Shown here: piece after piece, positions 4,288 through 60,495 of the stretch
Numbering within the stretch: the stretch's first letter is position 1
Layout of the letters: each line of letters begins with the position of its first letter
Assembly (NCBI GenBank): GCA_965208835.1
Contig: OZ242358.1
Location: forward strand, 4,064,001-4,128,000
DNA: 64,000 bases
Direction of reading: 5' to 3'
Origin: Candidatus Latescibacterota bacterium
GTDB lineage: Bacteria; Latescibacterota; UBA2968; GCA-2709665
Translations under genes and position numbers: made by a program
The notes under the pieces: model-generated
The model's input: only the letters and a program-made list of their open reading frames with translations
Database searches by the model: none
Told to the model about the DNA's origin: nothing

Positions 4288-6771
4288 TCACGCGGTGCTC
4301 GTGCCGAACGCGCCGGCGAAAATCACGAAATCGCTGAACCCGACGGAGCCGTTGCCGTCCAGGTCGAACCGGGCGTCGTATTCGGCATCGCCCTGACCGC
4401 GCCCAAAGGCGGTGGCGAACAGCAGAAAGTCGCCGAAACCGACTTTCCCGTCGCCATCGAAGTCGGCTTGGGCTCTTCCCGTGGCACTAAACGTTACCGG
4501 ATCTGTATTTGAAACCGTTGCCACAACTGTGTTCGTCCCGGGTTGCCTGCCAAGCGTCAGCGTCGTGGCGGCGCGGCCGTCGGCACCTGTCGTGGCGTTG
4601 GCAACGGACAACGCGCCGCCGCCGGCTGCGACCGTGAAAGTGACCGCGGCGTCGGTAAGCGGATTCCCGTATTGATCCCGTACTTCAACCACCAGGTGCT
4701 GCGCCAGGGTGTCGCCGGGCGCGCCGTGCTGGCCGTTGCCGGAGATGATCTCAAGGGCGGCGGGACGGGGCACGGTCCATTCCGTGACGTCCCACAGAAT
4801 GACCGTATTGTCCGGTGCCCCGGAAGCAAGGGTGGTGCCGTCTGGTGAGAACGATACAGAATAGACCAAATTCGCAGCATGCCCTTGCAGTGTGGCTAAG
4901 GTGGCTCTGCTTGCCACGTCCCATAGCCAGACCGTACCCGCCGTTGACGCGGAAGCGAGAGTTTTTCCATCCGGAGAAAACGATAGCGAATAGACCCAAC
5001 CCCCATGCTCAAGGGAAGCGAGAGGAACTCTGCTCGCCACGTCCCACACCCGCACCGTACCATCAAAAGACCCGGAAACTAGGGATTTCCCATTAGGAGA
5101 AAATGAAACGGCGGCAACCAGGTCATTGTGCCTTCCCAATGCGACGATCTGTCGCCTGGACGCCACGTCCCACAACCGAACCGTATTATCAGAAGACGCG
5201 GAAGCGAGCGTCTTGCCATCCGGAGAAAACGATAGCGAAAAGACGCCTCTCTCATGACCTTCCAGGGTTCCAATCGGTTGTCCAGTTTCCACGACCCAAA
5301 GCCGGATGGGCTCATCTCCATATCCCGCGCCGGAAGCGAGCATGGTCCCATCCGGAGAAAACGATACGGTTTCGACATATTCCGTATGCCCCTCCAGGAT
5401 GCCAGTCTGTTCCCCGGTCCTCATGTTCCAGAGTCGTACGGCGCCATCTCCTGCTCCAGCAGCGAGAATGGTACCGTCCCGAGAAAATGATACCGCATAG
5501 ACCGGAATCCCAACTTCAAGGGTTGCGATGGGTGCGTGCGTCTCAACATTCCACAACCGCACCGTACCATCGACTGATCCAGAGGCAAGGTTGGTCCGGT
5601 CCGGAGAAAACGACACCTCCTCGACCCTTTTCGTATGTCCTTCAAGGTAAGCGATGGCCTGCTGCGGGATTTCCGAAAGGAAAAATTCCGTTTCGCCGAC
5701 GTCTCCATAAGTATCCACGGCCAGGACCGCAATCCGGTGCACGGCAGGGTCCGACAGGCTTGAACCCGGTTCGAAAGGGATACCGGCGTCATACTCGAAC
5801 TCGGTTACGACATCTGTTTCGCCCCTCAACCCACGGCATGACTTGAGTCCAGAGCTTCCGGTACCCACGTTGTCCCCTCCTGCTGTAGCAAAGAGGATCA
5901 CCTGGTGAATTCCCTCAGGATCAGTAACATTGAGTTGGACGGTGACACGCTCCGAACCTGCGGGATACCTATTCGAGGAAGTGTGTTCTACGGTGGGCGG
6001 CTTCCCCTCTTCGAACGGTACAGCGGGATTGAAGTAGGGATTGACAGCCAGGAATTCGGCGGCGCACGCAGAGAGGACCCCGCGCTGATCAAATCCATAC
6101 GACATGATGTACCGATTGTCTCTGAAATCGTGATTCAAGCCGAAGGTATGTCCAAGCTCGTGAGCCACCGTGAAGAATCGGACGCTGTGGGGAACCAATA
6201 TATGGCCGTTGTTTTTCGCCCCGGGAGATGTGAATCCTCCAGCAAATCTACCGCGTGCAAGAGGGATTTTATCGATACTAAGGTCAGTGACGATAAGGTA
6301 AATGTTGGCATCAAGATCAAACCTTTGTTCGATTTCAGAGACTGGCCAACCCCCGGTCGCGTAGTGGCTGTCTGTGTGTTGTCCGTCGACGTGATGCACG
6401 AGCGGCTCGCCGCGGGCATCGGTCTCAAAGCGGAAGGTCCTGTTGGCGTAGCCATGCGCCTCCATCTGCTCAGCGTAGAAGGTTCGAACTCGACGAATTA
6501 CAATCTTCATCGAATCCACCACTTCCTGGCGAAACGGCCGGTCGTTCGGCAAGAAGTAGATCATCCTCACGGTGCGCGGTTCGCCGACGTTCAGGCCCGC
6601 CTGGCGCTTGGCCGCTGGCCAAGCGCGAGCCCGCTGCGAGTGCCCGTGATCTTCAATGGCGCAAAAATGGATGCTGTCGGGAAGAACCGGCGACGCATTG
6701 GCAACCTGCATCGGCGTAAGGAGACAACCGATGAATACAAACTGAGCGGAATGAAAAACAAGAGGTTTCAT
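4288..6771 (-). CDS. Secreted metzincin zinc metallopeptidase + WD40 propeller + Ig-like (Big_1) + dockerin-like module (class B)
   Basis: HELGHTFGLNH plus Met-turn YIMSYG; about 7 WD40 repeats (GHxxxVxSVSFSPDGxxLASGSxDxTVRLWD); ISGNGQ...VRDQYGNP Big_1 motif; C-terminal DFDGDGKVGFGDF...DLDGNGSVGFSDF. Start at ATG 6771 gives a signal peptide. Confidence 0.85.
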   Translation of the reverse strand: MKPLVFHSAQFVFIGCLLTPMQVANASPVLPDSIHFCAIEDHGHSQRARAWPAAKRQAGLNVGEPRTVRMIYFLPNDRPFRQEVVDSMKIVIRRVRTFYAEQMEAHGYANRTFRFETDARGEPLVHHVDGQHTDSHYATGGWPVSEIEQRFDLDANIYLIVTDLSIDKIPLARGRFAGGFTSPGAKNNGHILVPHSVRFFTVAHELGHTFGLNHDFRDNRYIMSYGFDQRGVLSACAAEFLAVNPYFNPAVPFEEGKPPTVEHTSSNRYPAGSERVTVQLNVTDPEGIHQVILFATAGGDNVGTGSSGLKSCRGLRGETDVVTEFEYDAGIPFEPGSSLSDPAVHRIAVLAVDTYGDVGETEFFLSEIPQQAIAYLEGHTKRVEEVSFSPDRTNLASGSVDGTVRLWNVETHAPIATLEVGIPVYAVSFSRDGTILAAGAGDGAVRLWNMRTGEQTGILEGHTEYVETVSFSPDGTMLASGAGYGDEPIRLWVVETGQPIGTLEGHERGVFSLSFSPDGKTLASASSDNTVRLWDVASRRQIVALGRHNDLVAAVSFSPNGKSLVSGSFDGTVRVWDVASRVPLASLEHGGWVYSLSFSPDGKTLASASTAGTVWLWDVASRATLATLQGHAANLVYSVSFSPDGTTLASGAPDNTVILWDVTEWTVPRPAALEIISGNGQHGAPGDTLAQHLVVEVRDQYGNPLTDAAVTFTVAAGGGALSVANATTGADGRAATTLTLGRQPGTNTVVATVSNTDPVTFSATGRAQADFDGDGKVGFGDFLLFATAFGRGQGDAEYDARFDLDGNGSVGFSDFVIFAGAFGTSTA

Positions 6772-6949
6772 GGATATTAATCTCGATCCGAGAAAGATCG
6801 GGTGGCCCCGCGAAAGGTTTTGGAGAATCACCACAGCTGCCTGTGGCCCGGCGCCGATCCGTGGCAACGCGCGATCCTGTAGCGCACTTGCCAATTTGCG
6901 GTACCGTCGCTTGACGGTGACTCCATCCCAAACACAGTTCGAATACCGC

Positions 6950-10032: not shown

Positions 10033-11448
10033 TCAAACCCGGCCCGCCCCAAAAAACCCGATGGCGCCAACTCGGGGGCGCAGGTTTTCCAACGAGCCAA
10101 ACCCATCGACAAATCTGAAAAAGTCAGCGAAATTTACGACGCCGTTGCCGTCCAGGTCGAATTTGGCGTTTGTGCTGCCGTACGCGTCCGCAAAGAGGAA
10201 GAAATCCACGAAGTCGGTCCGTCCGTCGCCGTTGAAATCAGTTGAGGCCGGAGCTTGCACAAGCGGTGTTCCGCTACTTACGGCCGACCACGAACCGGGT
10301 CCCCGGTTGGTGACGGCACGCAACTGCAGGTCGTACCGGGCGCCGCCGGCCAACCCGGCCACCTCGTAAAACAGCGTGCCGGAACCGGTTGTCCGGACGT
10401 ACCGCAATACGGTCCAGTTGGCCTCGGCTTTGTCCGCGGCGTCGCTGCGAATGTAACGAACGTCATAGCCGGTGATAACCAATGTGCCGGTTTCGATCGG
10501 AGGTACGCGCCACGAGATGGTGAGCGAGCCGGTACCGGCTGTCACCGAAAGGATGGCCGGCGCGTCCGTGCGGAGCGTGAGGTCATAGGCATACAGCTTC
10601 TTGTCCACGTCGTCGGCCACCCACATCGTCGTGCCGTTCGACCAGATCCCGACCGGGTGGCTGTTCCCTGCTGCATTCAGCGAATTGACGTCCTGAAAGG
10701 GGTTCCGGCCATAGTACGTCAGATTGTAGGCATAGATCTTCGCGTCGGCGTAGTCCGCCACCCACATCGTCGTTCCGTCGGACCAGATGCCCCGCGGGTG
10801 GTTGTTCCCGGCGGACCCAAGCGCACTGACTTCCCTGCCGAGATCTGCAACCTCGAGCTCCATATCATAGGCATACAACCTGGCATCCGTGTAATCGGCC
10901 ACCCACATTGTCGTGTCGTTCGACCAGATACCCTCAGGGTTGTCGTTTCCAACACGCTCGAGCCCGTTGATGTCCCTGTCTGCGTTACGGGCTCCGGTCG
11001 ACAAATCGTAGGCGTAGACTTTCTCTCCGAACCACGGATCGTCTGCCACCCACATCGTCGCTCCGTCGGACCAGATGCCCTCAGGGTTGCGGTTTCCGGC
11101 GGCCGCCAGCGTATCGAAGTCCTTGTTGGCGGCCCGCGTGCCGGAAACCAGGTCATAAGCATACAGCTTGCCGTCAACTTTGTCGGCCACCCACATTGTC
11201 GTGCCGTCCGACCAGATGCCCTCAGGGTCGTTGTTTCCGGCGGCCGCCAACCCGTCGATATCCTTAGCAGCGTCCCGGGCGCAGCACTCCCCTCCGAAGA
11301 TTTCGTGTATCGAACGCAGCTTCACCTCATCCTGGCCGCCGACCGGCAGGTCGTTGCCCGTTTCCGGATAAATCCGCGACGCTGACAAGACCACAAGAAC
11401 CGAGGCGAAGAGCCCAATACTTGGTTTTCCGCTTCTCACAAATGGCAT
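10033..11448 (-). CDS. Secreted 5x GIWSDG-repeat propeller + fibronectin type III + dockerin-like module (class A)
   Basis: Five PxGIWSDGTTMWVAD...KxYAY repeats; FN3 (SLTISW...YDVRY...YDLQLRAV...GSWS); DFNGDGRTDFVDFF...DLDGNGVVNFADFF. Likely start ATG 11448. Confidence 0.8.
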   Translation of the reverse strand: MPFVRSGKPSIGLFASVLVVLSASRIYPETGNDLPVGGQDEVKLRSIHEIFGGECCARDAAKDIDGLAAAGNNDPEGIWSDGTTMWVADKVDGKLYAYDLVSGTRAANKDFDTLAAAGNRNPEGIWSDGATMWVADDPWFGEKVYAYDLSTGARNADRDINGLERVGNDNPEGIWSNDTTMWVADYTDARLYAYDMELEVADLGREVSALGSAGNNHPRGIWSDGTTMWVADYADAKIYAYNLTYYGRNPFQDVNSLNAAGNSHPVGIWSNGTTMWVADDVDKKLYAYDLTLRTDAPAILSVTAGTGSLTISWRVPPIETGTLVITGYDVRYIRSDAADKAEANWTVLRYVRTTGSGTLFYEVAGLAGGARYDLQLRAVTNRGPGSWSAVSSGTPLVQAPASTDFNGDGRTDFVDFFLFADAYGSTNAKFDLDGNGVVNFADFFRFVDGFGSLENLRPRVGAIGFFGAGRV

Positions 11449-11589
11449 TCTTCGGGTTTCCGACAATACAGACCGCGACCACCTGAACCGGTTTTGGTTC
11501 GCGCGCGAGTTTACCGGTTGCTCGACTGTCGAAGGGATTCGTCGGGCTTCGAACAAGACAGTGTAACTCGACGACGGCGCCAGAATCGC

Positions 11590-14500
11590 CTACGCACCAA
11601 ACGCATCGACGAATCTGAAGAAGTCAGCGAAATCCACGATGCCGTTGCCATCCAGGTCATAGCGTGGGTCCGTACTGCCGTACGCGTCGGCGAAAAGGAA
11701 GAAATCCACGAAGTCCGTCCGGCCATCGCCGTTGAAATCTGTCGCGGCCTGCCCACCGGATACGCCACTTCCGAATATCTCCAGGGGAAGGTCGGCGGAC
11801 TTGACGAAGGCGTATCCGGAATGTTTCGCGGGCAACGCCGGCAGTGTCCCTATATCCACGGTAGCGGCGAAAGTCGTGCCGGGCGTTCGTGTCACGGATA
11901 GCGTATCGCTTTCGAGGCTGCCAGCGGAAAGTGTGATCGTTGTTGCGCCGCCATTGATGCTGCCGTTCGCAACGCGAAGCGGCAGGACGACGTCAAACGG
12001 CGCGCCGGTTGGCGCCACTGCCTTGAACTGTCCTTCTCCGGTTTTCTCCAGGGATACATTGAGCGGTAGGGGATCGACTGCATTGCCGCCAAGGCGGAGT
12101 TCGGTCAGGGACGTCAGTCCTTCAAAGACGCCATCAGGAAGACTGGTTAGCTGATTGCCTGGCAGGTTGAGGCGCGTAAGACCGGTCAATCCGGAAAAAT
12201 CCCCCGGTTTCAACGCTGAGATGCTCTGGTAGCCGAGGCGAAGCTGGGTAATCGCGGCGAGATGCGCTTCGGTCACAATGCTGGAATCGCTGATGACCGG
12301 CACGGCGGCAACAATTCCATTGCGCACCTGTGCCGTACGTTCGCTTAGCGGCACGGCGGGCAGATTGCTGACCCTGGCTTCGGCGGACATCTCCCCCTCG
12401 CCCACGGTGTTCACCGCGCGAACCTCGAATGTGTATTGTGAAGGGTTGTTCAGGCCGATGACCGTGTAACCGGCCTCGTTATCTCCACCGGCGCCGCTGT
12501 CGGGAACAGGCATCCATGGACCGAATGATCCATTTCGGACCTTTTCCCGGTACTCGTGACCCGTAATTTCAATGCCGCCATCGCAAGGCGTGGTCCAATG
12601 CAGCCCAACCTGGTTCCCGTCGTTGATGGCGGTCACGATGGGGGCATCCGGGGCGGTAGGGTGAAGGGTAATTTTCCAGGAGTATTGAAAACCAACAGGC
12701 CAAACCATGTGAGATGTTTCGCGCCAAAGGTACCAACTTGCTCCGTAAGCCGAGCCCTCCCCTGCATCAGCTAACGCTAAACCACCACTCGAGGAAAGCT
12801 GACTAAAGGACATAAGTTTCCTGTCGCATGAAGAGAATCCGGGACTAATCAGGAGCGAAATCTGATGGGTGAGATTGTTACCGATACGCGATATACTGAT
12901 TCCATGGATTGTATATGTAGCGCCTCTATATGAGAACGTCGGGTTTGAAATTGAACCGGCATTGTGATGTCGACTGTAACCGAAACCCGTCGCATTGCCG
13001 TTATTGAAGTCATTCCCCCATGTACCTCCAGTGGAGGTTCCCGACCAGACCCGGGTTACGACAGCCCCGGCAGTGACCGCCAGCGGCAGGTCGGCGGACT
13101 TGACCAGCGCGTATCCGGAATGATTTGGGGGCAACGCCGGCAGTGTGCCTATATCCACGGTAGCGGCGAACGTCGTGCCGGGCGTACGCGTCACAGAAAG
13201 CGTATCGCTTTCGAGGCTGCCAGCGGGAATAGTGATTGTCGTCGCGCCGCCGCTGATGCTGCCGTTCGCAACGCGAAGCGGCAGGACGACGTCAAACGGC
13301 GCGCCGGTTGGCGCCACTGCCTTGAACTGTCCTTCTCCGGTTTTCTCCAGGGATACATTGAGCGGCAGGGGATCGACCGCGTTGCTGCCCAGGGAAAGCC
13401 TGGTCAGCCCGGTCAGTCCTACGAAGATGCTGTCGGGCAGCGCCGTCAGCCGGTTGCCGATCATGCGCAGATCCGTCAGTACGGTCAGTCCGTCAAGGAG
13501 GCCCGACGGCAGCGTCGTCATTCGATTGAGGCCGAAGCGGAGCGTTTGCAGCGACGAAAGCCCCCAGAAAATGTCCTCTGGCAGGCTGGTGAGTTGGTTG
13601 CCCCACAGTCGGAGTTCCTCCAGACTTGTGAGCCCATCGAAGTCTCCGGATTTCAATGATGAAATGCCTGTATCGTTGAGGTAAAGTGCGGTTATGCCAT
13701 CAAGGTGCGTCGCCGTGATTTGCGCAAAGCTCGAAACATTGGGGTCGTTCAATCGGACAACGCCGAGAATCGCATCTCGCACCTGCGACGTGCGCTGGCC
13801 GACCGGAGCAATGGACGCCGTCCACTCAGACACGTCCCAGAATTTGATCTGCCTGCTATTCGGCCTCGCATCATTGCCGATGAGCATTCTTCCGTCTGGA
13901 GAAAACGTCATGCGCCGCACGCCACCCGGCCCACCTGAAATGGACGCCAGGAGTTCGCTCTTCGAAATGTCCCATAGTTCAATCAGACCGAAAGCCGTCA
14001 CTGCGAGAGTGGCGCCATCCGGCGAAATCACCGGATAGGCACGATTGTAATCTCGCATATCGTTCACCGCGCCGGTCTGTACTCCTGTTGCCAGATCCCA
14101 GAGCTTCACTGCCCATGAAACGGGTGATGCGACGAGTGTCCCGTCCTTTGAAATCGCTACGGCTCCTTTTGCTCCAGTCTCTATGGTCCGAATCAGGGCT
14201 CTTGTGGACACGTTCCAAAGCCTGACAGTGCCGGTAACGGAAACGGAAGCAAGGTTCCCGTCGCGCACAAAGGCGATCTTGCCTACTCTTTCCGTGTGTC
14301 CTTCAAGGGTAGCGCCATTTGTCCAGGTCGCGACGTTCCACAACTTTACCGTACGGTCGAATGATCCGGAAGCGAGCATCGAACCATCCGAGGAAAAATC
14401 CAGAGACGCCACCTGATCAGCGTGTCCTGCCAGCGTCGCGACCTCTGTTTCACTGGTCACGTTCCACACTTTGATCGTGCCTTCCTTCGATCCCGCGGCG

Positions 14501-23606: not shown

Positions 23607-23613
23607 CAACGCT

Positions 23614-30276: not shown

Positions 30277-30332
30277 AATTCTGTACCCACGGTATTTACG
30301 GCAATATCGTTATGAATGACGATCAGGGCCGT

Positions 30333-30758: not shown

Positions 30759-30826
30759 ATTGCTGTTTACCTGGTGAATCACCGCTTGTATGGAAGCGAC
30801 GAGGTTAAGGCAGAAATAGCATCCAC

Positions 30827-31276
30827 TCAATCAACTTCATGAGCGGACAGGTAGATTGATTTTTCCAAAACGTTGAAGAAATTCTGATATACGAGCGGGT
30901 TTTTTACCGCTTTATCGTCGAACTGCGCGTTCGCTCGCACCAACAACTGGGTTTCGCCCCTCGGGCGGACCGTTACGGTGATCAGGAGCGGAAGTTTCTT
31001 CTTGGAAAACAGCTTATACTTTATGTCCGTTGTTCGGGCGCTGACCGTTCCGATCACTTCATTCGCCTCATTCACGATATAGCCCAGGTCCTGAAGTGTG
31101 GAAATCACAGTTCTGAGCATGCCTTCTTTATCGGTCGTGTCGAATGCACGGGTCTGCATGCTTCGCATCTCGACCTGGCTTTCGTCCATCTTCAACAGAT
31201 GCTCTTTCGATGACGCGCACGCGGAATAAACGAACAATGCGCCAATCGCGACCGCCAATTTCCCGGTTGCTGTCAT
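30827..31276 (-). CDS. Uncharacterised lipoprotein, paralogue 2
   Basis: Lipobox VYSAC; conserved core; ATGA overlap with the upstream gene. Confidence 0.8.
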   Translation of the reverse strand: MTATGKLAVAIGALFVYSACASSKEHLLKMDESQVEMRSMQTRAFDTTDKEGMLRTVISTLQDLGYIVNEANEVIGTVSARTTDIKYKLFSKKKLPLLITVTVRPRGETQLLVRANAQFDDKAVKNPLVYQNFFNVLEKSIYLSAHEVD

Positions 31277-31884: not shown

Positions 31885-31946
31885 CCTGGGACCTCCTCTG
31901 TTTGGGCGGTCTCGCAACCAGCGCTTCGATACAGGGTTTGTACATT

Positions 31947-32384
31947 TCAGAACCGCGATGCGTGATAGGCGAAGTCTCTCACCTTCTTGTCCTCGTCGAA
32001 TTTAATGATTACGGTGAGCGTCCTCTGCGACGTCGATTCGGCTCCGGAGTCTCCGGCCAACTTGGCGCCCCTGAAAGCGAAATCGACCAACCCGACAAGA
32101 ATCAGAGATGGAATACCAGCCTTGCTGGACGAGTATGCCTTTTCCGTGGAGATCTTGTCATATATCCACACTTCCCGCCGCTCTTCGTCGGTCGAGACGA
32201 CATTCGGCGATCCGAGAGCCTGAGCGACCTCAGCGCCGCTCATGCCCACTCTGATTTCCTTCTGGACCACTCCCACGGTCATCCGGTCGCCCTCGTCATC
32301 CCGCACAGACGATCGGTGGTGCTGTGCCACCATGCAGCCCGACAGAGTCAGTACGGCAATTGCCGATACGAAGTAAGCCTTCAT
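31947..32384 (-). CDS. SmpA/OmlA (BamE-like) domain lipoprotein
   Basis: Lipobox LSGC; IRVGMSGAEVAQALGSP...EVWIY...LTVIIKFDEDKKV fits the SmpA/OmlA fold pattern; GGAGG RBS. Confidence 0.7.
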   Translation of the reverse strand: MKAYFVSAIAVLTLSGCMVAQHHRSSVRDDEGDRMTVGVVQKEIRVGMSGAEVAQALGSPNVVSTDEERREVWIYDKISTEKAYSSSKAGIPSLILVGLVDFAFRGAKLAGDSGAESTSQRTLTVIIKFDEDKKVRDFAYHASRF

Positions 32385-32564
32385 TTTCGATTCCTCCTTC
32401 TTGAATGCATTCCGATTTCACGCACGTCGAGTCACGTGCATGCTGAACCCGGTCACGTACGTATAAGTACGTTTTGCGACGGTCTTTCCCTCTGCGGATG
32501 CGGTTATAAGCCGCCGATACGCAGCCAGTGACGAGAGGCAATATTCACCAATGCACGATTCAGC

Positions 32565-35500
32565 CTATCCCGAAGTCCCGAAGGCATCCACAAACTCAAA
32601 GAAATCTGCAAAGTTCACGATGCCGTTGTCGTCAAGGTCGTATTTCGCGTCCGTGGTGCCGAAGGCGTCCACGAAGTCGAAGAAGTCCGCGAAGTTCACG
32701 ATGCCGTCGCCGTTGAAGTCCGCCGTCTTCTGTCCCTGGGTCTGAGTGCAGTCCGGCAAATTGAGCTTGTCCAGATCATTTTGGGAAACGTCCCTCAATG
32801 ATGGCGGGACGCAACCTGTCAGCGAGTTCCCCGAGAGATACAGCAGGCCCAATCTGGCCAGTCCGCTCAATGTCGAGGGAATGGACCCGGTCAGCCTGTT
32901 GTCGTCCAGGCGCACTTCCTGCAGCAGACTCAGATTTCCCAGATCCGCGGGGATCGTACCGGTAAACCTGTTGCCAAATATGAGCAGCTGCCACAGTTCG
33001 GTCAGGTTGCCCAACTCAGTCGGGATTGCGCCGGTCAACTGGTTCTCGTAGAGGTTCAGTATCTGCAAGCGGCGCAGGGTACCAACCCACGACGGGAAAT
33101 TGCCGGTCAACCCATTGATCTGAAGGGCAAACTTTCGAAGGTTGGTCAGGTTTTTCAGCTCCGCGGGGATGGTACCGGTCAAACGGTTGCTCGGAAGAAC
33201 CAAATGGGTCAGGCCGGTCATCGTACCCAGCGCCGCGGGGATGGTCCCTGTCAACTGGTTGTAGCCGAATTGCAACGCGTTCAGGCCGGTCAGGCGGCTC
33301 AACCCGGCCGGAATGGTTCCGTTCAGGCTCTTGTTCCAGAGTCTCAAGTTCGTTACGCGCTGCGGCGTGCCGCTTATCGTAACGCCGTCCCACGTCGCGA
33401 TCGCGGTATTCTCCGACCAGTTCAGCGACGCTGTCCCTCTCAGGGGATCCCTCGCCTCCAGCAGCACATTGCAGTCGGAGACCAGCCACGGGTTGGCGGC
33501 AGGATTCGGCACGGCGCTTCCGGTCGCGCACGGCCCCTGCGGCGCCGGCGGCGTGGGAGCGGCGGCGACCGCGAGGGCCAGACCGAATGGATTGTCCAGG
33601 CCATCGGATCCGGTCACAAGGTCTTCCACGTTTGAACCGTCCAGATCGGCGCGCTGGATCCTGTCATTGTCCAGGTCCGTCCAGTACATCTTGCCCGCGG
33701 CCAGGTCCAAGTCCACCTCGACTGGTTTGGCCAGACCGCGGGTGATGACGTCTTCGATATTGGAGCCGTCAAGGTCGGCTCGCTGAATCACGCCTGTTTC
33801 GCGATCCGTGAAGTACATCTTGCCGTGTACCACGTCCAGCGCCAGACCGCTGGGACTCCCGAAACCGCTGGTGATCAGGTCTTCCACGTTAGAGCCGTCC
33901 AGGTCCGCACGCTGGATCTTGTCGGCCGACGAGTCCGTCCAGTACATCTTGCCGCCGGACACGTCCAGAACCAGGCCGGCCGGGCTGTTCAACCCCCCGG
34001 CGACCACCAGGTTCTCAACGTTGGAGCCGTCCAGGTCCGCACGCCGGATCCTGTCCGTACCCCAGTCGGTCCAGTACATCTTGCCGCCGGACACGTCCAG
34101 CGCCAGCCAGACCGGCGTGTCCAAACCGCTGGTGATCAGGTCTTCGACGTTCGAGCCGTCAAGGTCAGCACGCCGGATCTTCTGCGTGCCCGAATCGGTC
34201 CAGTACATCTTCCCGGCAGACAGGTCCACTGCCAACCCGACCGGGGTATTCAGACCGCTGGTGACCACGTCTTCCACGTTCGAGCCGTCCAGGTCCGCAC
34301 GCTGGATCTTCTGCGTGCCCCAGTCCGTCCAATAAAGCTCCGGATTCGCCTGCGGTTCGTTCACGTCGGTCAGGTTGATCGTCACGTCTATCGTGGCACT
34401 GCCGCCCTGGCCGTCGGACACCCGCACCGTCACGTCGTAGCGGTTCTTCACCTCGTAGTCGTAGATGACGCCCGTTTTGGTCTGCAACTGGCCGCTGGTT
34501 GAGACGAGGACGAAACTCGCGGCATCCGTACCCTCCAGGCTGTAGGAGAGTGTTCCACCGTCGCCATCCGTCGCACGAATCGGGCCGCCGACGTTCTGTC
34601 CCGCTGGCGTATTCTCTGCGAAGCTGCGCGTTGTGCTGGCGCCTTCGCTAAACGTCGGTACGTGATTCGTCCCTCCGCCTACCTCCGCGGTAACCGGCAA
34701 CTGCGCCGTCAGCGACGCCCCACTGTAATTCGCGATTGCCCCGGCGCCCACCGTGAACGTCAGCGTGCCGTCGGTGTCAATGTCGCCGTTAAAGGTCAGC
34801 GTGACTGTCACCTTCGTGTCGCTCACGCGCTGGACACCGAACGCGCCCACGCTCACGCCGGTAATGCCCGATACTGTCACACCACCCCGAACGTCGAAAA
34901 TGGAACTTGCGTACGCGCCGCCCGTAAGTGTCAATGTGACGACGCTGCCGTTCAGCGTCGCCTCGGTCAATGGAGACGGCGTCGACGCCGTCACCGATTC
35001 CATCCCCGCGCTCACCGGCAGTGTCGCGATGAGTGCGAGACCGCTGTAGTTCGCGATCGCGTCCGCGCCCACGGTGAACGTCAACGTGCCGTCCGCGTCG
35101 ATATCGCCATTGAAGTCCAGTTCAACCGTCACCTTCGTGTCGCTCACACGCTGGATACCGAACGTGCCAACGCTCACGCCCGTAATCCCCGATACGGACA
35201 CACCGCGCCGGACGTCGAAGATAGAACTCGCGTAGGAACGACCCGAAAGCGTGAGTGTCACAACGCTCCCGTTCAACGTCGCCTCCGTCAAGGACTGCGC
35301 CACTGTCGCAACAACGGTTTCCTCCAGGGCAACTACATCTACCTGGTCCGTAAGCGCGGGTCCGCTGTAGTTCGCGAGTGCCCCCGCGCCCACGGTGAAT
35401 GTCAACGTGCCGTCCGCGTCGATGTCGCCATTGAAGTCCAGTTCAACCGTCACTTTCGTGTCGCTCACACGCTGCACCCCGAAAGTGCCTACGCTCACGC

Positions 35501-37040
35501 CGGTAATTCCCGACACCGACACCCCGTCGCGGACGTCGAAGGTAGAACTCGCGTATCTCGCCCCGGTAAGCGTCAACGTCACCACGCTCCCGTCCAGCGT
35601 TGCCTCCGTCAATGGCGAAACCGTTGTGGCGGTAACCGATTCCATCGCCGCGGCCACTGAAAGTTGTGCCGAGAGCGCGGGCCCGTTATAATTCGCGAGT
35701 GCCCCCGCGCCCACGGTGAACGTCAGCGTACCGTCGCTGTCGATGTCGCCGTTGAACGTCAGCTCAACCGTTACCACCGTATCACTCTTCCGCTGCACGC
35801 CGAACGTGCCCACACTCACACCCGCAATACCCGACACGGACACCGCATCTCGGACGTCGAAGATGGAACTCGTGTATTTTCCTCCGGTGAGCGTCAACGT
35901 TACCAGACTCCCGTTCAGCGTCGCTTCGGTTAACGGTGATGCCGTTGTTGCCGTCAACGTCTCCATGGCAGCACTTACCGGCAACTGCGCGGTCAGTGCG
36001 GACCCGGTGTAATTCGCGATCGCGTCCGCGCCCACCGAGAACGTCAACGTGCCGTCGCTGTCTATGTCGCCGTTGAACGTCAGCTCAACCGTTACCACCG
36101 TATCACTCTTCCGCTGCACGCCGAACGTTCCAACGCTCACCCCGGCAATGCCCGATACTGACACGCCGTCACGAACGTCGAAGATCGAGCTCTCATATAG
36201 GCCACCAGTCAGCGTAAGCGTCACCACGCTCCCATTCAGCGACGATTCGGTCAACGGCGACGTCGTCGTCGCCGTCACCGATTCCATCCCCGCGCTCACG
36301 GTCAACTCTGCGGTCAACGCGGCGCCGTTGTAGGACTCGATCGCGTCGGCGCCCACTGTAAACGTCAGCGTACCGTCGCTGTCGATGTCGCCGTTGAAAT
36401 CCAACTCAACCGTCACCGTGGAATCGCTCACGCGTTGCACGCCGAACGTGCCCACGCTAACGCCCGCAATTCCGGACACCGAAACGCCGTCACGAACGTC
36501 GAAGATCGAACTCTCGAAATCTCGTCCGGAAAGCGTCAACGTCACCACGCTCCCGTCCAGCGTCGCTTCGGTCAACGGCGACACTGTCGATGCCTCCACC
36601 GTTTCTTCCACCGACGGGATAGACAAATCTCTCGTTAGCGCGGCGCCGTTGTAAGACGCGATGGCTCCCGCGCCAACCGTGAACGTGAGCGTTCCTTCTT
36701 CGTCGAAGTCTCCGTTGAAGTCCAGTTCTATCGTCAATTTGGTATCGCTTGCACGCGTTATCCCGAACGTCCCCACGCTAACGCCTGCAATCCCCGATAC
36801 CGTTACCGCCCGACGGATGGAGAAGATAGACCGCTCGAAAGTACGCCCGGCAAGCGTCACGGTAACCTCGCTGCCATCCAGCGTCGCCTCGGTCAACGGA
36901 CTTGACGTCGACACGGTGATCGACTCCTGAACCGCAGGAACGGGAACCTGGGCGTTTCCCGAAACCGGCAGGGCGAATGCCGCCACAACGACTCCCAACG
37001 TCATCACGGCGGATCGCCAATTCCAAACTCTCCGTTCCAT
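32565..37040 (-). CDS. Giant secreted adhesin-like protein: 7x 107-aa beta repeats + cadherin + YWTD propeller + plant-type LRR + dockerin
   Basis: Seven PLTEATLxGSxVTLTL...TFTVGA repeats; cadherin motifs (ENT, ATDGD, DYE, DVNE); six YWTD-type repeats; LRRs; DFNGDGIVNFADFF twice. Confidence 0.85.
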   Translation of the reverse strand: MERRVWNWRSAVMTLGVVVAAFALPVSGNAQVPVPAVQESITVSTSSPLTEATLDGSEVTVTLAGRTFERSIFSIRRAVTVSGIAGVSVGTFGITRASDTKLTIELDFNGDFDEEGTLTFTVGAGAIASYNGAALTRDLSIPSVEETVEASTVSPLTEATLDGSVVTLTLSGRDFESSIFDVRDGVSVSGIAGVSVGTFGVQRVSDSTVTVELDFNGDIDSDGTLTFTVGADAIESYNGAALTAELTVSAGMESVTATTTSPLTESSLNGSVVTLTLTGGLYESSIFDVRDGVSVSGIAGVSVGTFGVQRKSDTVVTVELTFNGDIDSDGTLTFSVGADAIANYTGSALTAQLPVSAAMETLTATTASPLTEATLNGSLVTLTLTGGKYTSSIFDVRDAVSVSGIAGVSVGTFGVQRKSDTVVTVELTFNGDIDSDGTLTFTVGAGALANYNGPALSAQLSVAAAMESVTATTVSPLTEATLDGSVVTLTLTGARYASSTFDVRDGVSVSGITGVSVGTFGVQRVSDTKVTVELDFNGDIDADGTLTFTVGAGALANYSGPALTDQVDVVALEETVVATVAQSLTEATLNGSVVTLTLSGRSYASSIFDVRRGVSVSGITGVSVGTFGIQRVSDTKVTVELDFNGDIDADGTLTFTVGADAIANYSGLALIATLPVSAGMESVTASTPSPLTEATLNGSVVTLTLTGGAYASSIFDVRGGVTVSGITGVSVGAFGVQRVSDTKVTVTLTFNGDIDTDGTLTFTVGAGAIANYSGASLTAQLPVTAEVGGGTNHVPTFSEGASTTRSFAENTPAGQNVGGPIRATDGDGGTLSYSLEGTDAASFVLVSTSGQLQTKTGVIYDYEVKNRYDVTVRVSDGQGGSATIDVTINLTDVNEPQANPELYWTDWGTQKIQRADLDGSNVEDVVTSGLNTPVGLAVDLSAGKMYWTDSGTQKIRRADLDGSNVEDLITSGLDTPVWLALDVSGGKMYWTDWGTDRIRRADLDGSNVENLVVAGGLNSPAGLVLDVSGGKMYWTDSSADKIQRADLDGSNVEDLITSGFGSPSGLALDVVHGKMYFTDRETGVIQRADLDGSNIEDVITRGLAKPVEVDLDLAAGKMYWTDLDNDRIQRADLDGSNVEDLVTGSDGLDNPFGLALAVAAAPTPPAPQGPCATGSAVPNPAANPWLVSDCNVLLEARDPLRGTASLNWSENTAIATWDGVTISGTPQRVTNLRLWNKSLNGTIPAGLSRLTGLNALQFGYNQLTGTIPAALGTMTGLTHLVLPSNRLTGTIPAELKNLTNLRKFALQINGLTGNFPSWVGTLRRLQILNLYENQLTGAIPTELGNLTELWQLLIFGNRFTGTIPADLGNLSLLQEVRLDDNRLTGSIPSTLSGLARLGLLYLSGNSLTGCVPPSLRDVSQNDLDKLNLPDCTQTQGQKTADFNGDGIVNFADFFDFVDAFGTTDAKYDLDDNGIVNFADFFEFVDAFGTSG
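34690..36930. repeat. Tandem coding repeat, 7 x 321 bp
   Basis: Antisense shadow ORFs recur at about 321-bp spacing (e.g. 35395, 35716); protein repeats are highly similar. Confidence 0.9.
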
Positions 37041-37053
37041 AAGTCAGCATCCC

Positions 37054-40000
37054 CTATTCAAAAGTGCCTCGCGTGACACGTCCTCCCTCGATGCTGCATC
37101 CGCCGGCAGAAACACAGGTGTATCTGGTTCCGTCCTGCAGCTCGATCAGGCCGCCGTTCTGGAAGCTGAGTACCGCGCGCCCCCCGCTGATTGTAAGGCT
37201 CGCATTCCGAATGAGCCTGGGCACGAAGAAGCCGGTGGGGAAGTTCGGAAGCACGTCACCGACGCCCCAGGTTCCGCCGCCGTTACCGCCTGCGGCGCCT
37301 ACGGCCAGTCCGGATGGGTCGACCAGCCCGTTGGCGCTCGTCAGGAGGTCTTCGACGTTGGACCCGTCCAGATCCGCGCGCTGCACCCTGTCGGCATCCA
37401 CGTCCGTCCAGTACATCTTGCCGCCCGAAACATCAAGGTCCAGCCCGTTGGGAGTCGTCAGACCGGTGGCAACCAAATCTTCAACACCGGAACCGTCCAG
37501 ATTTGAGCGCTGGATCTTGCGGTTTCCGCGGTCCGTCCAGTACATCTTGCCGCCCGACAGATCCAGGGCAATGCCGGTTGGGCTACTCAGTCCACTGGTC
37601 ACGAGGTCTTCCAGATTGGAGCCGTTCAGGTCCGCACGCTGGATCTTGTCCGACCCGGGATTCGTCCAGTACATCTTTCCATTGGCCACGTCGAGTGCGA
37701 TTTCACCAGGAAATGCCAGGCCGGCCAGCGTGAGGAGGTCTTCAACGTTGGAACCGTCCGGGTCCGCGCGCTGGATCTTTCCGTTCTGCCGGTCCGTCCA
37801 GTATATCTTGCCGCCGGACACGTCAAGCGCCAGACCGTACGGCACGCTCAGGCCGCTTGTGATGACGTTCTCCACGTTCGAGCCGTCCAGATCCGCACGC
37901 TGGATCTTTGCCGTACCCGCGTCCGTCCAGTAAATCTTGCCGCCCGATATATCCACGGCCAATCCGTCCGGGCCGTTCAGGCCCGCGCTGCTGACCAGGT
38001 CTTCGACGTTGGATCCGTCCAGATCCGCGCGCTGGATCTTGTCAGTACCCCAATCCGACCAGTACAGTTTCGACGTACCCGTGGCGGGGGGCGTCGTCGC
38101 CGCAACAGTAATGCTTACCGCGGCGGAGCAGTTGTTTCCTGTGTCGGATTCACCGGATACCGCATCCACACAGGCGCCGTAGTAGTAGGTGCCGGAATTC
38201 GAAGGCGCCGTCAGGTCAATCGCCAAAGCCAGATCAATCGATCCGGGATTCCCTCCCGACGCCGCAAGGCCGTTCACCGCGTCCGTTCCAACTTCCGTGT
38301 CGGACGTTGAGATGCTCGCGTCGACCGACATATAGTAGCGCAACGTCGTAGCCGCCGACATCTGATCGCCCTGGTTGCGAACTGACGCGCCCAGCCTGAA
38401 GGTGTCGCCGGCAGCCGGGCTGCTGTTGCTGACGAAAGGCGAAACGACAACCAGGTCGGCACCGCCTCCACCCCCGCCGCCGGAACCGCCACCCCCGCCG
38501 CCGGACGCCGTCGCCAGGGCCAGACCCGACGGGTCCACCAGCCCGTTGGCTCCGGTTACCAGGTCTTCCACGTTGGAGCCGTCCAGGTTGGCGCGTTGAA
38601 CCTTATTCGTGCCGGTGTCGGCCCAGTACATTTTCCCTCCGGACACGTCGAGAGCCAGGCCATTCGGTCGATCCAGACCGCTGGTGACAAGGTCTTCGAC
38701 ATTGGCCCCACTGAGGTCCGAACGCTGGATCTTGTCCGAACGCCTGTCCGTCCAGTACATCTTGCCCCCGGAAACATCGAGTGCGATCCCGGTCGGACTG
38801 TCTACGCCCCTGGTGACGAGGTCTTCGACTCCTGATCCATCCAGGTTGGACCGCTGAATCCTGTTCGCGCCCGGATTGGTCCAGTACATCTTGCCGCCAG
38901 ACACGTCCAGGGCCAGACCGCCGGGAAACGTCAGACCGCTGGTGATCAGGTCTTCCGCGTTGGCGCCGTTGAGGTCGGCACGTTGTATCTTGTTCGTCTG
39001 CCGGTTCGTCCAGTACATCTTGCCGCCAGACACGTCCAGGGCCAGACCGTACGGTATTCCCAGGCCCGTTACCAGGTCTTCCACGTTCCCGCCATTGAGA
39101 TCAGCACGCTGGATCTTGTTGGCGCCCGCATCCGTCCAGTACATCTTGCCGCCTGCCATATCCAGCGCCAAACCGTCCGGCCCGTCCAGTCCGCCGCCGG
39201 AGACCAGGTCTTCCACCCCCGAGCCGTCCAGGTTGGCGCGCTGGATCTTGTCGGTTCCCCAGTCCGTCCAGTAGAGTTTGGAAGCTCCAGGGGTGGGCGG
39301 TGGTGGCGCCGCAGCAACCGTCAGGGCAACGGCGGGCGAACAGTTGTTCCCCGTATTGGACTCGCCGGAAACCGCGTCGACACACGCGCCGTAGTAGTAG
39401 GTTCCCGAACTGGAAGGCGCCGTCAGGTTGATCGACTCCGCGCTAACGCCGCCGGCAGAGAGTCCGCTCACCGCGTCAGTGCCTGCTTGCGTGTCGCTGG
39501 TGTTCACTGTCGCGTCGGTCGAACGGTAGTAGCGCAAGGTCGTCGCGGCAGACGTTCCGTTACCCTGGTTCCGGACTGTCGCGCCAAGCGTAAAGGTCGC
39601 CCCGTGCGATACGCGACTGCTGCTCAGAGAAGGGGACTGAACGACCAGATCCGGGTTGCCGCTACCACCACCCCCACCGCCCGGCGATGGCGGTGGACCT
39701 CCAAAGCCTTGCGCGAAGATCAGAAAATCCGTAAAGTCAACCGAACCATCGGAATTCAGGTCCTGCGCGGCATTGTACCTCCCGTCGCCCTGCCGCGACC
39801 CGAACGCGCCCGCAAAAATCAGAAAGTCCGAAAATCCGACGAAATCATCGCCGTCGAAGTCGGGAGAGGGCGCCGAGTTAAACGTAACCTCACTGCTTGT
39901 CCTGAGTTCGTCGCTCGAGGTGGGACTTTCCGCGAGGGTAACCGACTCGATGCCTATGGCGAATTCCCGGCCGGTTACGTCCGCAACGGTCGTAAACTCC

Positions 40001-40386
40001 GCACGCGCCAGAAACCCGGAAGCCGCCAGTGTGACGGGGCTTGACGCCGCCAGGTGGGTGCCGATGGAGCCCTCCGGAAGCGACAGTGGGAACGCGCTGT
40101 TTTCTGCCTCTTCATACGACAGCAACGAAGCGTCGAAGTCGAATTTCAGGATCATTCCGGCCAGGGACGTCCGCACGCCGGTCGCGAATACCTCAACGGC
40201 GATGGTTGTGCCCCGACCGGAAACTGTTCCCGACGTGACCCCGTCATCCGTCCGGTTTCCGGCGCCTACACCAGGAATCAGATCAAGCGACAGGACGGCA
40301 TTGGCATTGGCGCCGGCGAAAGCCTGTCCGGAAACGACGACGACCGCGAGGGCGGCAATCAACAACAGAATCCGTTTGGGAAGCAT
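37054..40386 (-). CDS. Putative adaptor scaffoldin: cohesin-like + dockerin (class B) + 2x (CARDB + YWTD propeller) + unknown C-terminal domain
   Basis: N-terminal domain closely paralogous to the repeats in 15891-19052; DFDGDDFVGFSDF...DLNSDGSVDFTDF; Gly/Pro linkers; two sets of six YWTD-type repeats. Confidence 0.78.
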   Translation of the reverse strand: MLPKRILLLIAALAVVVVSGQAFAGANANAVLSLDLIPGVGAGNRTDDGVTSGTVSGRGTTIAVEVFATGVRTSLAGMILKFDFDASLLSYEEAENSAFPLSLPEGSIGTHLAASSPVTLAASGFLARAEFTTVADVTGREFAIGIESVTLAESPTSSDELRTSSEVTFNSAPSPDFDGDDFVGFSDFLIFAGAFGSRQGDGRYNAAQDLNSDGSVDFTDFLIFAQGFGGPPPSPGGGGGGSGNPDLVVQSPSLSSSRVSHGATFTLGATVRNQGNGTSAATTLRYYRSTDATVNTSDTQAGTDAVSGLSAGGVSAESINLTAPSSSGTYYYGACVDAVSGESNTGNNCSPAVALTVAAAPPPPTPGASKLYWTDWGTDKIQRANLDGSGVEDLVSGGGLDGPDGLALDMAGGKMYWTDAGANKIQRADLNGGNVEDLVTGLGIPYGLALDVSGGKMYWTNRQTNKIQRADLNGANAEDLITSGLTFPGGLALDVSGGKMYWTNPGANRIQRSNLDGSGVEDLVTRGVDSPTGIALDVSGGKMYWTDRRSDKIQRSDLSGANVEDLVTSGLDRPNGLALDVSGGKMYWADTGTNKVQRANLDGSNVEDLVTGANGLVDPSGLALATASGGGGGGSGGGGGGGADLVVVSPFVSNSSPAAGDTFRLGASVRNQGDQMSAATTLRYYMSVDASISTSDTEVGTDAVNGLAASGGNPGSIDLALAIDLTAPSNSGTYYYGACVDAVSGESDTGNNCSAAVSITVAATTPPATGTSKLYWSDWGTDKIQRADLDGSNVEDLVSSAGLNGPDGLAVDISGGKIYWTDAGTAKIQRADLDGSNVENVITSGLSVPYGLALDVSGGKIYWTDRQNGKIQRADPDGSNVEDLLTLAGLAFPGEIALDVANGKMYWTNPGSDKIQRADLNGSNLEDLVTSGLSSPTGIALDLSGGKMYWTDRGNRKIQRSNLDGSGVEDLVATGLTTPNGLDLDVSGGKMYWTDVDADRVQRADLDGSNVEDLLTSANGLVDPSGLAVGAAGGNGGGTWGVGDVLPNFPTGFFVPRLIRNASLTISGGRAVLSFQNGGLIELQDGTRYTCVSAGGCSIEGGRVTRGTFE

Positions 40387-40532
40387 CGGGGAACACTCCT
40401 TTGTTTCGACGTCGATTTCATTCCGGCAACTCGACCGGGGTTGAGATTCGAATCTTGGCTCGCGACGTCGCGATTGAATCTCCTGCGCGTACGATGTCGA
40501 CTGGATTCAGAATCGTGGAATTGTAGTCAGGC

Positions 40533-41342
40533 TTACTTCAACAACAGCATCCTCCTGGTTGCTGAGAAACTGCCCGCTTGTATCCGATACAGATAGATGC
40601 CGCTGGCCACGCGCCGGCCCAGCGCGTCCGTCCCGTCCCACGTCGCAGTAAAAGACCCGGCGTTTCTGCGTTCGTTCACCAGGACGCGCACCTCCTGGCC
40701 GATCAGATTGTATATCGCCAGCCGAACCATTGCCGCCTCCGGCAACTGGTAGCCGATCGCGGTGGAGGGGTTGAATGGGTTGGGCATATTCTGCTCCAGA
40801 TTGAACCGATCCGGCAGCGGCTTCAGATCGCCGATTTCGGCGTGATGCAGCATGTCGACGGCGCCATCCATGCCCACCAGAACGCTTTCCGATACCTGAA
40901 AGTCGGACGACAACGGCGTTGCGCTCGTCCTGAACACAAGCTCGACGAGCTTCCCGCCGCCACTGGCGCCTCGGCCGTCGATCTTCACCGCGCCAATATC
41001 CACCTGCCCCGGCGTCCGGTTCGAAGACAAGAACAGGGTCTCCTGACCGGAACCGGATTTCAGCAGGTTGCCGTCGAGTTCCGTGGCACTAACGAACTCA
41101 TACTTCAAGGGATCGTATTGCAGCGAAAACCCGTATCCCTTCAGATCACTGGTCTGCGCCACCGACACGAGCATTTTCAGAACGCCGCTTTCCGCGTCCG
41201 GGTCGTTCACGCGCTCCAACTTGAGCGTAGCGCCGGAGTTCCGACCTCCGGTAATGGTCAGCCCGCGGGTCATGTCACCGGCGAATACCTGGCCGATCAA
41301 CACAAACGCCGCGCAAACGGATGTAGAAACGAGATTCCACAT
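40533..41342 (-). CDS. Cohesin-like domain + FlgD-Ig / T9SS type A-like C-terminal sorting domain (putative anchoring scaffoldin)
   Basis: DLKGYGFSLQYDPLKYEFV...SGGGKLVELVF cohesin-like pattern; LEQNMPNPFNPSTAIGYQLP...IYNLIGQEVRVL...WDGTD..GRRVASGIYLYRI...MLLLK CTD; GGAGG RBS; first gene of the array. Confidence 0.8.
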   Translation of the reverse strand: MWNLVSTSVCAAFVLIGQVFAGDMTRGLTITGGRNSGATLKLERVNDPDAESGVLKMLVSVAQTSDLKGYGFSLQYDPLKYEFVSATELDGNLLKSGSGQETLFLSSNRTPGQVDIGAVKIDGRGASGGGKLVELVFRTSATPLSSDFQVSESVLVGMDGAVDMLHHAEIGDLKPLPDRFNLEQNMPNPFNPSTAIGYQLPEAAMVRLAIYNLIGQEVRVLVNERRNAGSFTATWDGTDALGRRVASGIYLYRIQAGSFSATRRMLLLK

Positions 41343-60494: not shown

Positions 60495-60495
60495 G

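Follow-up and report, generated by a model that had tools for sequence, protein, structure and literature searches.

The stretch of DNA analysed here, a window of 64,000 nucleotides, lies within the genome of a Candidatus Latescibacterota bacterium that is assembled as a single 5.18-Mb contig and is 97.8% complete (G000:C1:4064001-4128000). It contains an array of secreted genes, all on the minus strand and running from 41342 down to 4288, ten of which encode a dockerin module and three of which encode cohesins. The window is probably a single island within a cohesin-dockerin display system that extends across the genome of this diderm bacterium, is not cellulolytic, and has a three-tier assembly of anchor, adaptors and cargo. 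The feature is real and its domain assignments are well supported, and from these we infer its hierarchy and function; it is not a cellulosome but has a cellulosome-like working. The original prediction, made from the letters of the window, had placed the whole system at 4288-41342. Its observations (the dockerin modules, the cohesin folds and the co-oriented array) are confirmed, and its interpretation is supported as far as the module identities, the anchor and the adaptor architectures are concerned, but not in its array-only extent, as dockerins occur throughout the genome, nor in its blanket exclusion of carbohydrate-active enzymes (CAZymes).

Dockerin modules in the window and across the genome

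A duplicated Ca-loop/helix module had been described for ten genes of the array (4288, 10033, 11590, 15891, 19074, 22260, 23855, 26740, 32565, and 37054) and is present in all of them. Nine of the ten match the strict loop pattern in both Ca-loops. The exception is 37054, whose first loop has D instead of G at loop position 6 and is thus degenerate, but whose module still aligns over its full length. A hidden Markov model (HMM) of the ten copies finds each of them at a domain E of 1e-19 to 1e-26 against 58,158 six-frame open reading frames (ORFs) of the genome, so that chance is excluded. Loop pattern, HMM, and Pfam matches together identify the tails as dockerin-type F-hand pairs, that is, loop-helix pairs without an entering helix; in an AlphaFold2 (AF2) model of 37054 two helices (residues 162-171 and 195-204) follow the dockerin loops.

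Two dockerin classes are present. DocA (the 'FF' class) has a DFFxF helix and a short linker, its loops being separated by 27 residues, and is carried by seven cargo genes (10033, 11590, 19074, 22260, 23855, 26740, and 32565), whereas DocB has a long linker with 33 residues between the loops and is found in 4288, 15891, and 37054. One or the other spacing is fixed in 73 of the 86 copies in the genome. Pfam Dockerin_1 (PF00404; cut-off 22.9 bits) identifies three of the ten modules, all of them DocB (4288 and 15891 at 23.4 bits, and 37054 at 25.7 bits), while the seven short-linker copies fall below the cut-off, with Pfam reporting 22260 alone among them, at 16.8 bits. All seven FF modules lie within the same genome-wide HMM family as the DocB modules, and the DocA profile matches both repeats of the solved dockerin 2y3n_B. 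There are 44 places in the genome with a Dockerin_1 match at E <= 0.01, and 37 are over the cut-off (two of these only via neighbouring matches in frame). DocA is highly conserved across related metagenome-assembled genomes (MAGs), in two variants (i and ii), of which variant ii is tied to a recurring gene trio described below.

At a threshold of HMM domain E < 1e-4 the whole genome contains 86 dockerin ORFs, with the module C-terminal in 42, N-terminal in 30, and internal in 14. We considered the dockerin as a C-terminal sorting signal and reject this because of the N-terminal and internal copies; the spread of positions fits a portable binding module rather than a terminal signal. Two short ORFs (genome 1255656-1255982, L009:5204-5530; and genome 4423500-4423910, L030:16094-16504) include only the second half of an FF dockerin and probably represent what is left of cargo genes located elsewhere in the genome than the window.

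Cohesin folds on the anchor and the adaptors

The cohesins of the window are of two types, which we name CohA (a subfamily comprising the cohesin of 37054 and both of those in 15891) and CohB (the type in 40533). An AF2 model of 37054 residues 24-232, generated on a 56-row alignment, has a predicted local distance difference test (pLDDT) of 94.8 and a predicted template modelling score (pTM) of 0.80, and consists of ten strands followed by two helices. Foldseek matches it to cohesins at probability 1.0, and VIA-align is led by 2vo8 (Z 12.2, root-mean-square deviation 2.7, 124 aligned), 2jh2 (Z 12.0), and 2w1n (Z 11.9), with a top 50 made up mostly of cohesins in which ruminococcal and Acetivibrio ones lie at Z about 10. 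In the model CohA has the size (about 148 aa) and topology of a full cohesin, a flattened jelly-roll of nine beta-strands and some 140-150 residues. The two 15891 copies are 69 and 68% identical to the folded 37054 module and each is matched by our own cohesin HMM at 1e-77, and CohA has 185 relatives at E <= 0.001 among 1.84 billion representative proteins. On its predicted fold, CohA is a new cohesin subfamily, invisible to Pfam and divided into three clades.

The CohB protein 40533 scores 20.4-22 bits on Pfam Cohesin (PF00963) against a cut-off of 24.1, and its paralogue at locus L005 exceeds this with 29.6 bits. There are 256 homologues of 40533, which have the NCBI name 'T9SS type A sorting domain-containing protein' and several of which carry a precomputed PF00963 match, and all nine PDB sequence matches of the CohB family profile are cohesins. 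The AF2 model of 40533 has a pLDDT of 77.7 overall and of 80-94 in the cohesin and tail regions, and its top Foldseek matches are cohesins (probability 1.0, template modelling score 0.57-0.70 on target), many of them of the type II anchoring kind. The expectation that these beta domains fold as cohesins is borne out by the models for both types, while a check against PF00963 succeeds only in part: 40533 itself is under the cut-off and CohA has no match, but the paralogue and homologues of 40533 are over it.

Several results weigh against this interpretation. CohA has neither a Pfam Cohesin match nor, when its profile is compared with PDB sequences, a PDB match, so that its status as a cohesin rests on the predicted fold; an hhalign comparison of the CohA and CohB profiles, built from shallow alignments, is not significant (probability 0.3); and beta-sandwiches of Gram-positive pilins and adhesins also reach Z 9-10 to the CohA model. 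DocA is under all curated dockerin cut-offs (e.g. 21-27 bits against 29 for NCBIfam dockerin_GC), and its profile matches calmodulin loops about as strongly as dockerin, at E about 3e-5. The calmodulin match, the blindness of Pfam to CohA, and the pilin-type sandwiches would be accommodated if no docking occurred at all, the duplicated loops being EF-hand-type Ca-binding stabilisers and the beta domains generic Ig-like spacers. We regard this as extremely improbable, since cohesins rank first for both folds, and the dockerin module lacks the entering helix, keeps its two spacings, and occurs at either end of otherwise unrelated proteins, where it is nearly exclusive of the T9SS (type IX secretion system) sorting tail that sits on the cohesins instead.

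The first gene of the array, g40533 (40533-41342; 269 aa), encodes an anchor-type protein with a signal peptide, CohB (40803-41279), and a T9SS type A sorting domain (about 40536-40790). Signal peptides were called by eye from the N-termini, and the N-terminal hydrophobic segment of g40533 ends in VFA. Its C-terminus had been read as a FlgD-Ig domain and does match FlgD_ig (39.5 bits, cut-off 27), but it is a T9SS type A sorting domain (TIGR04183 at 29.7 bits, cut-off 23). The two adaptors have the Coh-Doc and Coh-Coh-Doc architectures originally proposed. Adaptor g37054 (37054-40386; 1110 aa) has a signal peptide, CohA (39871-40317), and DocB (39697-39873) without a linker between them, followed by CARDB and a YWTD propeller, twice (Pfam CARDB and Ldl_recept_b). 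Adaptor g15891 (15891-19052; 1053 aa) has two CohA modules (18537-18983 and 18087-18536), DocB (17913-18089), CARDB, a YWTD propeller, and a C-terminal HEMGH domain that is leishmanolysin-like (HExxH at 905; Peptidase_M8 at 23.1 bits for the cut-out C-terminus, cut-off 21).

About 12 cohesin modules are present in the genome as a whole. Five are CohA, distributed over four proteins with at most two per protein, and CohB is found in five small proteins with a T9SS tail, one of which is split by a stop codon; paralogues of g40533 lie at genome 10883, 628252, and 2828077. Two giant proteins contain a dockerin-like stretch, a cohesin, and a T9SS tail. Among 24 ORFs with a T9SS tail, seven carry or adjoin a cohesin and two (the giants) also have the dockerin-like stretch. 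A protein with a plug therefore almost never has an export tail as well, and much of the set of tails is found on sockets. The giants (L037:1-4875 and L037:10396-15066, within genome 4916887-4931952; 1625 and 1557 aa), with Pfam-positive cohesins, are the only ORFs that combine all three elements. The split CohB protein consists of a 171-aa CohB-type ORF followed 4 nt later by a 117-aa ORF with the T9SS tail only (L015:15405-15917 and genome 2405136-2405486), and lies between two LRR-dockerin genes. It is an anchor gene with a stop codon, reflecting a pseudogene, an assembly error, or read-through.

Cargo, gene order, and the proposed hierarchy

The ten dockerin genes of the window encode WD40, LRR, YWTD (Ldl_recept_b), FN3, cadherin-like, GLUG, and CARDB domains, and Pfam finds a CAZyme domain in none of them. 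Five cargo proteins are without a recognised protease domain: g32565 (32565-37040; 1491 aa) has cadherin-like, YWTD propeller, and LRR regions and a C-terminal DocA of variant ii (32568-32732), the two halves of which are nearly identical; g23855 (23855-26674; 939 aa) has GLUG repeats and DocA (23858-24016); g22260 (22260-23609; 449 aa) has an N-terminal part without family, FN3, and DocA (22263-22421); g19074 (19074-21095; 673 aa) has a WD40 propeller and DocA (19077-19235); and g10033 (10033-11556; 507 aa) has a part without family, FN3, and DocA (10072-10251).

Three further cargo proteins had been listed as WD40 proteins; at the N-terminal end each additionally has a metzincin domain, in which the HExxHxxGxxHD site (HELGHxFGLxHD) is complete and the Met-turn IMSY follows. 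These are g26740 (26740-29616; 958 aa), with metzincin, WD40, LRR, and DocA (26743-26901; 92 bits with the dockerin HMM); g11590 (11590-15894; 1434 aa), with metzincin, WD40, LRR, and DocA (11593-11751); and g4288 (4288-6894; 868 aa from the listed TTG, the true start probably being the Met at residue 42), with metzincin, WD40, and DocB (4291-4479). The zinc sites are HELGHAFGLQHD in g26740, HELGHAFGLHHD in g11590, and HELGHTFGLNHD in g4288. Reprolysin_5 exceeds its cut-off of 27 bits in two of the three (30.9 in g11590 and 29.8 in g4288, with g26740 just under it at 26.2), and g4288 also matches Metallopep at 34.6 bits (cut-off 27). Together with 15891 there are four dockerin-tagged proteins in the window with a zinc metalloprotease domain.

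Dockerin ORFs outside the window, 81 in number, were scanned with Pfam in batches of 38 and 43 (E <= 1e-6 and 1e-8), giving with those of the window a tally of 87 ORFs in overlapping classes, as several domain types can occur in one protein. LRR is found in 20/87, WD40 in 14, peptidase domains in seven (M60, S8, M10, three metzincins, and one M8-like), FGE-sulfatase in five, and CAZyme-like domains in four (one glycoside hydrolase of family GH5 and three heparinase II/III-like); 22 have no Pfam family at these thresholds, and the remainder include FN3/Ig, FG-GAP/ASPIC, NHL, and CARDB proteins. The absence of any recognisable CAZyme is thus correct for the window but not for the genome. A cellulosome sensu stricto was considered and is rejected, as glycoside hydrolases are not the main cargo in either set and there is no scaffoldin with a carbohydrate-binding module (CBM); in the Pfam scans no CBM was seen on any cohesin protein.

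The five FGE-sulfatase proteins, four encoded by tandem SUMF1-like genes (L039, genome 5132529-5137085) and the fifth in L023, all have an N-terminal short-linker dockerin directly after the signal peptide, and the three dockerin-tagged heparinase II/III-like proteins are encoded in L006 and L018. The domains of these two groups hint at a possible action on sulfated glycans. A second island (L003, genome 458692-476298) is organised on the same principle: a CohA-DocB-LRR adaptor is accompanied by an M60 peptidase-WD40-dockerin gene and by three large genes of WD40-dockerin type, the dockerins all being of the long-linker class.

In the three-tier assembly that we propose all of the proteins would cross the inner membrane by Sec. 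Anchor g40533 would exit via the T9SS, with its tail cleaved and its cohesin fixed to anionic lipopolysaccharide (LPS), as is established for Bacteroidota cargo. DocB of the two adaptors and of g4288 would plug into the g40533 cohesin, the rigid CohA-DocB unit being placed like the X-module-dockerin dyad on type II anchoring cohesins, and the CohA sockets of the adaptors would take the FF dockerins of the seven DocA cargo proteins, such that the tandem-cohesin g15891 serves DocA variant i and g37054 serves variant ii. The outcome would be a complex on the cell surface that depends on Ca and acts on proteins of a host or of prey by binding and cleaving them, without cellulose degradation. Cohesin-dockerin binding in the window is predicted from sequences and models; a complex prediction with CohA of 37054 and DocA of 32565, run without controls, scored 0.02 against a mark of 0.32, which counts neither for nor against binding.

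Conserved gene order, and the tracking of dockerin type with CohA clade, support the anchor-adaptor-cargo hierarchy but do not prove it. The trio order of a CohB-tail gene, a CohA-DocB gene, and an FF-dockerin gene (40533, 37054, and 32565 in the window) recurs in 12 related loci. Neighbours of the CohA-CohA-DocB gene (here 15891) in eight related loci comprise 33 FF-dockerin genes, no long-linker genes, and two unclassified ones. In a tree of 80 CohA modules three clades are supported, namely tandem/FF (99/93), trio (92/88), and a third one (94/94). No better pointer to cognate pairs is available than this joint variation of CohA clade and dockerin type of the neighbours, which likewise supports such pairs without proving them. 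Two points count against it: the third clade is flanked mostly by long-linker cargo, so that binding of CohA to DocA only cannot be general, and the match between clade and context is not independent evidence because related sequences share their labels by descent.

The CohA-DocB fusion without a linker is a conserved unit and could therefore act like an X-module-dockerin dyad rather than an adaptor. CohA would then be not a socket but the rigid partner of its own dockerin, 37054 and 15891 would be cargo, and all dockerins would sit on CohB anchors in two tiers. The dockerin does follow CohA directly in most of the 150 best CohA representatives, the AF2 junction in 37054 is modelled with high confidence (pLDDT about 92, with the pTM given above), the five small CohB-tail proteins (one split) and the two giants could provide several specificities, and the third CohA clade lies among long-linker cargo. 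We consider this arrangement rather unlikely, however, given that CohA has the full size and topology of a cohesin with Z 12 to cohesins, that some representatives have two or three CohA copies before a single dockerin (Coh-Coh-Doc or Coh-Coh-Coh-Doc), which an X-module role does not explain, and that the tandem CohA gene is always found among FF-dockerin genes.

A further alternative is that CohA binds the DocB of other Coh-Doc proteins, generating a head-to-tail polymer or surface matrix that ends on the anchor. DocB is present on every CohA protein, Coh-Doc genes are often side by side in relatives (e.g. L055, L057-L060, and L077), and the neighbours of the third clade are long-linker, all of which would suit such self-assembly. 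It would, however, leave the very conserved FF dockerins without a partner and the strict linkage of FF dockerins to the tandem CohA gene without an explanation, and we judge it highly improbable. The three-tier assembly of anchor, adaptors, and cargo is the reading that we retain.

All 56 loci found with the CohA profile are in MAGs titled Candidatus Latescibacterota, 'Gemmatimonadota', or uncultured bacterium. Two families have CohA in 43 of their 48 sampled genomes, while 102 genomes from other families of the phylum have none. Pfam dockerins are found in 89 of 101 sampled genomes; the two CohA families have 1-39 per genome, with a median of about 18, and the next family has 0-11, with a median of 2. 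Besides the best-matching runs, which may be the source, sponge metagenome runs from at least four studies contain near-identical DNA (28-53% of sampled words), and no RNA run is listed among the runs with such DNA. The bacterium is probably sponge-associated, and its occurrence in sponge metagenomes fits a host-interaction reading.

The array is arranged in two blocks, 41342-32565 and 29616-4288, within which the intergenic gaps range from -4 to 249 nt. One strong terminator-like hairpin (29764-29736, minus) is located between the blocks; this aside, scans of 29400-45300 for sigma-70 promoters and terminators gave nothing above shuffles, and a sigma-54 -24/-12 pattern has three matches in the window against 1.5 expected, none of them upstream of the array. 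Between the anchor-adaptor trio and the cargo block there are two small ORFs (30333-30830 and 31273-31917, minus) with lipobox-like N-termini and no family match, within a stretch of lower GC (0.515 vs ~0.60). Genes without a dockerin inside the array encode an M48 peptidase (6950), an aldo-keto reductase (9005), and, in the middle of the cargo block, a protein with a weak outer-membrane beta-barrel match (21139-22200, minus; OMP_b-brl at 23.6 bits, under the cut-off of 28.7). The last of these is 353 aa long and has two similar halves, each with a terminal '...RAEGRYRRWFDD...FSLLLGLGAR' motif.

Export route and relation to known systems

Of the T9SS machinery, SprA is identified over its cut-off (SprA_N at 99.7 bits), and PorV-like ORFs are under the curated 250-bit cut-off; the best of them (genome 4051946-4052890), at 104 + 52 bits, is about 12 kb before the start of the window. 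GldM (TIGR03517) was not found in the genome, but the control matched nowhere either. Upstream of the array is a gene for a PorU-like C25 peptidase (45253-51033, minus; 1926 aa) with a propeptide and its own T9SS tail (Peptidase_C25 at 233.6 bits, Por_Secre_tail at 31.9 with a cut-off of 23, and NCBIfam T9SS_sortase at 312.6, below 420), which may be the sortase that attaches tail-bearing proteins. Two genes for response-regulator/AraC-type regulators (42608-44493, minus) are between the PorU-like gene and the anchor gene, and one might guess at a role for them in the cohesin-dockerin system. Directly upstream of the PorU-like gene is an O-antigen/LPS-type cluster (51027-63969, minus) that encodes a PMT_2/ArnT-like transferase, an epimerase, two GT1 glycosyltransferases, a sulfotransferase, a flippase, a WecA-like GT4 glycosyltransferase, a DegT aminotransferase, a GT2 glycosyltransferase, and a Wzy_C O-antigen ligase. 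The product of this cluster could be the anionic glycan that T9SS cargo is joined to; anionic LPS in Porphyromonas requires a DegT-type enzyme.

The principal weakness of a simple display model is the route of the cargo across the outer membrane. Neither a secretin domain nor GspD was found in this 97.8% complete single-contig genome, which leaves 84 tail-less dockerin proteins without a known outer-membrane route, a secretion puzzle that counts against the assembly as we have drawn it. It is also the basis for a further hypothesis, as dockerin proteins exported by Sec number 86, T9SS tails number only 24, and a secretin is not detectable. Tail-bearing cohesins could be carriers as well as anchors, such that dockerin cargo docks in the periplasm, crosses the T9SS as a folded complex, and is then displayed covalently on LPS, with the PorU-like protease and the O-antigen and sulfotransferase genes supplying the attachment chemistry. 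We regard this piggyback route as distinctly unlikely; if true, it would be a new way to widen the substrate range of the T9SS and would explain how the eukaryote-like proteins of sponge symbionts reach the host.

Several known cohesin-dockerin systems resemble this one and have structures among the matches. Matches 2b59, 3kcp, 3l8q, and 4u3s go with clostridial cellulosomes such as those of Acetivibrio thermocellus (CipA with SdbA/OlpB) and A. cellulolyticus (with the ScaA-ScaB adaptor). Like the clostridial type I/type II cellulosomes, the system described here has cohesin jelly-roll sockets, duplicated F-hand dockerins in two classes, a proposed anchor-adaptor-cargo order, and a beta domain fused directly to an anchoring dockerin (X-Doc). 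Unlike them, it is in a diderm host with a T9SS sorting domain instead of SLH or sortase, has no CBM and no long multi-cohesin scaffoldin, has cargo of repeat proteins and proteases rather than of CAZymes, and includes a cohesin type that Pfam does not recognise. Matches 5lxv and 4uyq go with the system of Ruminococcus flavefaciens, in which ScaC is an adaptor with one cohesin and one dockerin and ScaE has one cohesin with a cell-wall anchor. The window resembles it in having an anchoring cohesin that is monovalent and a Coh-Doc adaptor, likewise monovalent, by which the range of cargo is broadened; here, however, Coh-Doc lacks a linker and forms part of large proteins with CARDB, YWTD, and protease bodies, and anchoring would be by T9SS and LPS and not by sortase. 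The nearest structures to CohA (Z 11.9-12.2), which are also nearest to the CohB profile by sequence, are from the NagJ/GH84C and NanJ/GH33 enzymes of Clostridium perfringens (2jh2, 2w1n, 2vo8, and 2ozn). These non-cellulosomal pairs are likewise not for cellulose and assemble secreted enzymes that act on host glycans, but they are Gram-positive, with few modules per genome, and interlink glycosidases without a cell-surface anchor.

Further comparisons are offered by Cloacimonadota and Poribacteria. For the Cloacimonadota 'Ca. Stygibacter' (PMC8542988), a cellulosome-like complex is predicted in silico, with a T9SS-type C-terminal domain on the cohesin protein and dockerins on GH18, GH57, S8, and C25 enzymes. 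The two systems are alike in being from FCB-group diderms, in the T9SS-type tail on a cohesin protein, and in having dockerins on non-cellulolytic enzymes, S8 and C25 peptidases in the case of 'Ca. Stygibacter'; the latter relies on a single scaffoldin of 3,755 aa, in which CBM2/CBM3 accompany the tandem cohesins, and on a cargo of enzymes (GH18 and GH57), unlike the small monovalent anchors, Coh-Doc adaptors, and mainly WD40/LRR-type cargo found here. Kamke et al. 2014 (PMC3909097) describe WD40, LRR, FG-GAP, and ASPIC proteins with a TIGR04183 tail in sponge-symbiont Poribacteria, and the words dockerin and cohesin are absent from that paper. The resemblance includes the exported WD40, LRR, FN3, cadherin, VCBS/FG-GAP, and ASPIC proteins, a lineage known from metagenomes of sponges, and a connection with a sorting domain of T9SS type. 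The poribacterial repeat proteins, however, carry their own sorting tail, whereas here the repeat proteins carry dockerins and the cohesins carry the tail. For Latescibacteria, PMC7081726 cites Farag et al. 2017 for 'cellulosome-affiliated enzymes', and neither cellulosom- nor dockerin, cohesin, or scaffoldin occurs in the text of Youssef et al. 2015 (PMC4454575). In full-text literature, supplements aside, we found no description of dockerin-tagged WD40/LRR repertoires or of the Coh-Doc unit.

Catalogues of cohesins and dockerins outside cellulosomes have existed for years, yet hardly any of these modules has an assigned function, and where the 'eukaryote-like' repeat proteins of sponge symbionts are located and what they do is a long-standing question. 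This lineage joins the two topics: dockerins tag the majority of its WD40, LRR, FN3, and propeller proteins, as well as several of its zinc proteases, and the matching cohesins are on T9SS anchors. To these the window adds a genome-wide census, two dockerin classes, a CohA subfamily with a fused dockerin, a conserved anchor-adaptor-cargo gene order, metzincin cargo, and a missing outer-membrane route. It also offers plug-and-socket pairs of Gram-negative origin that are predicted to be orthogonal and that form a compact set. The concrete model that emerges, with about a dozen cohesins against three dockerin classes, would explain how these proteins are displayed jointly on a diderm surface.

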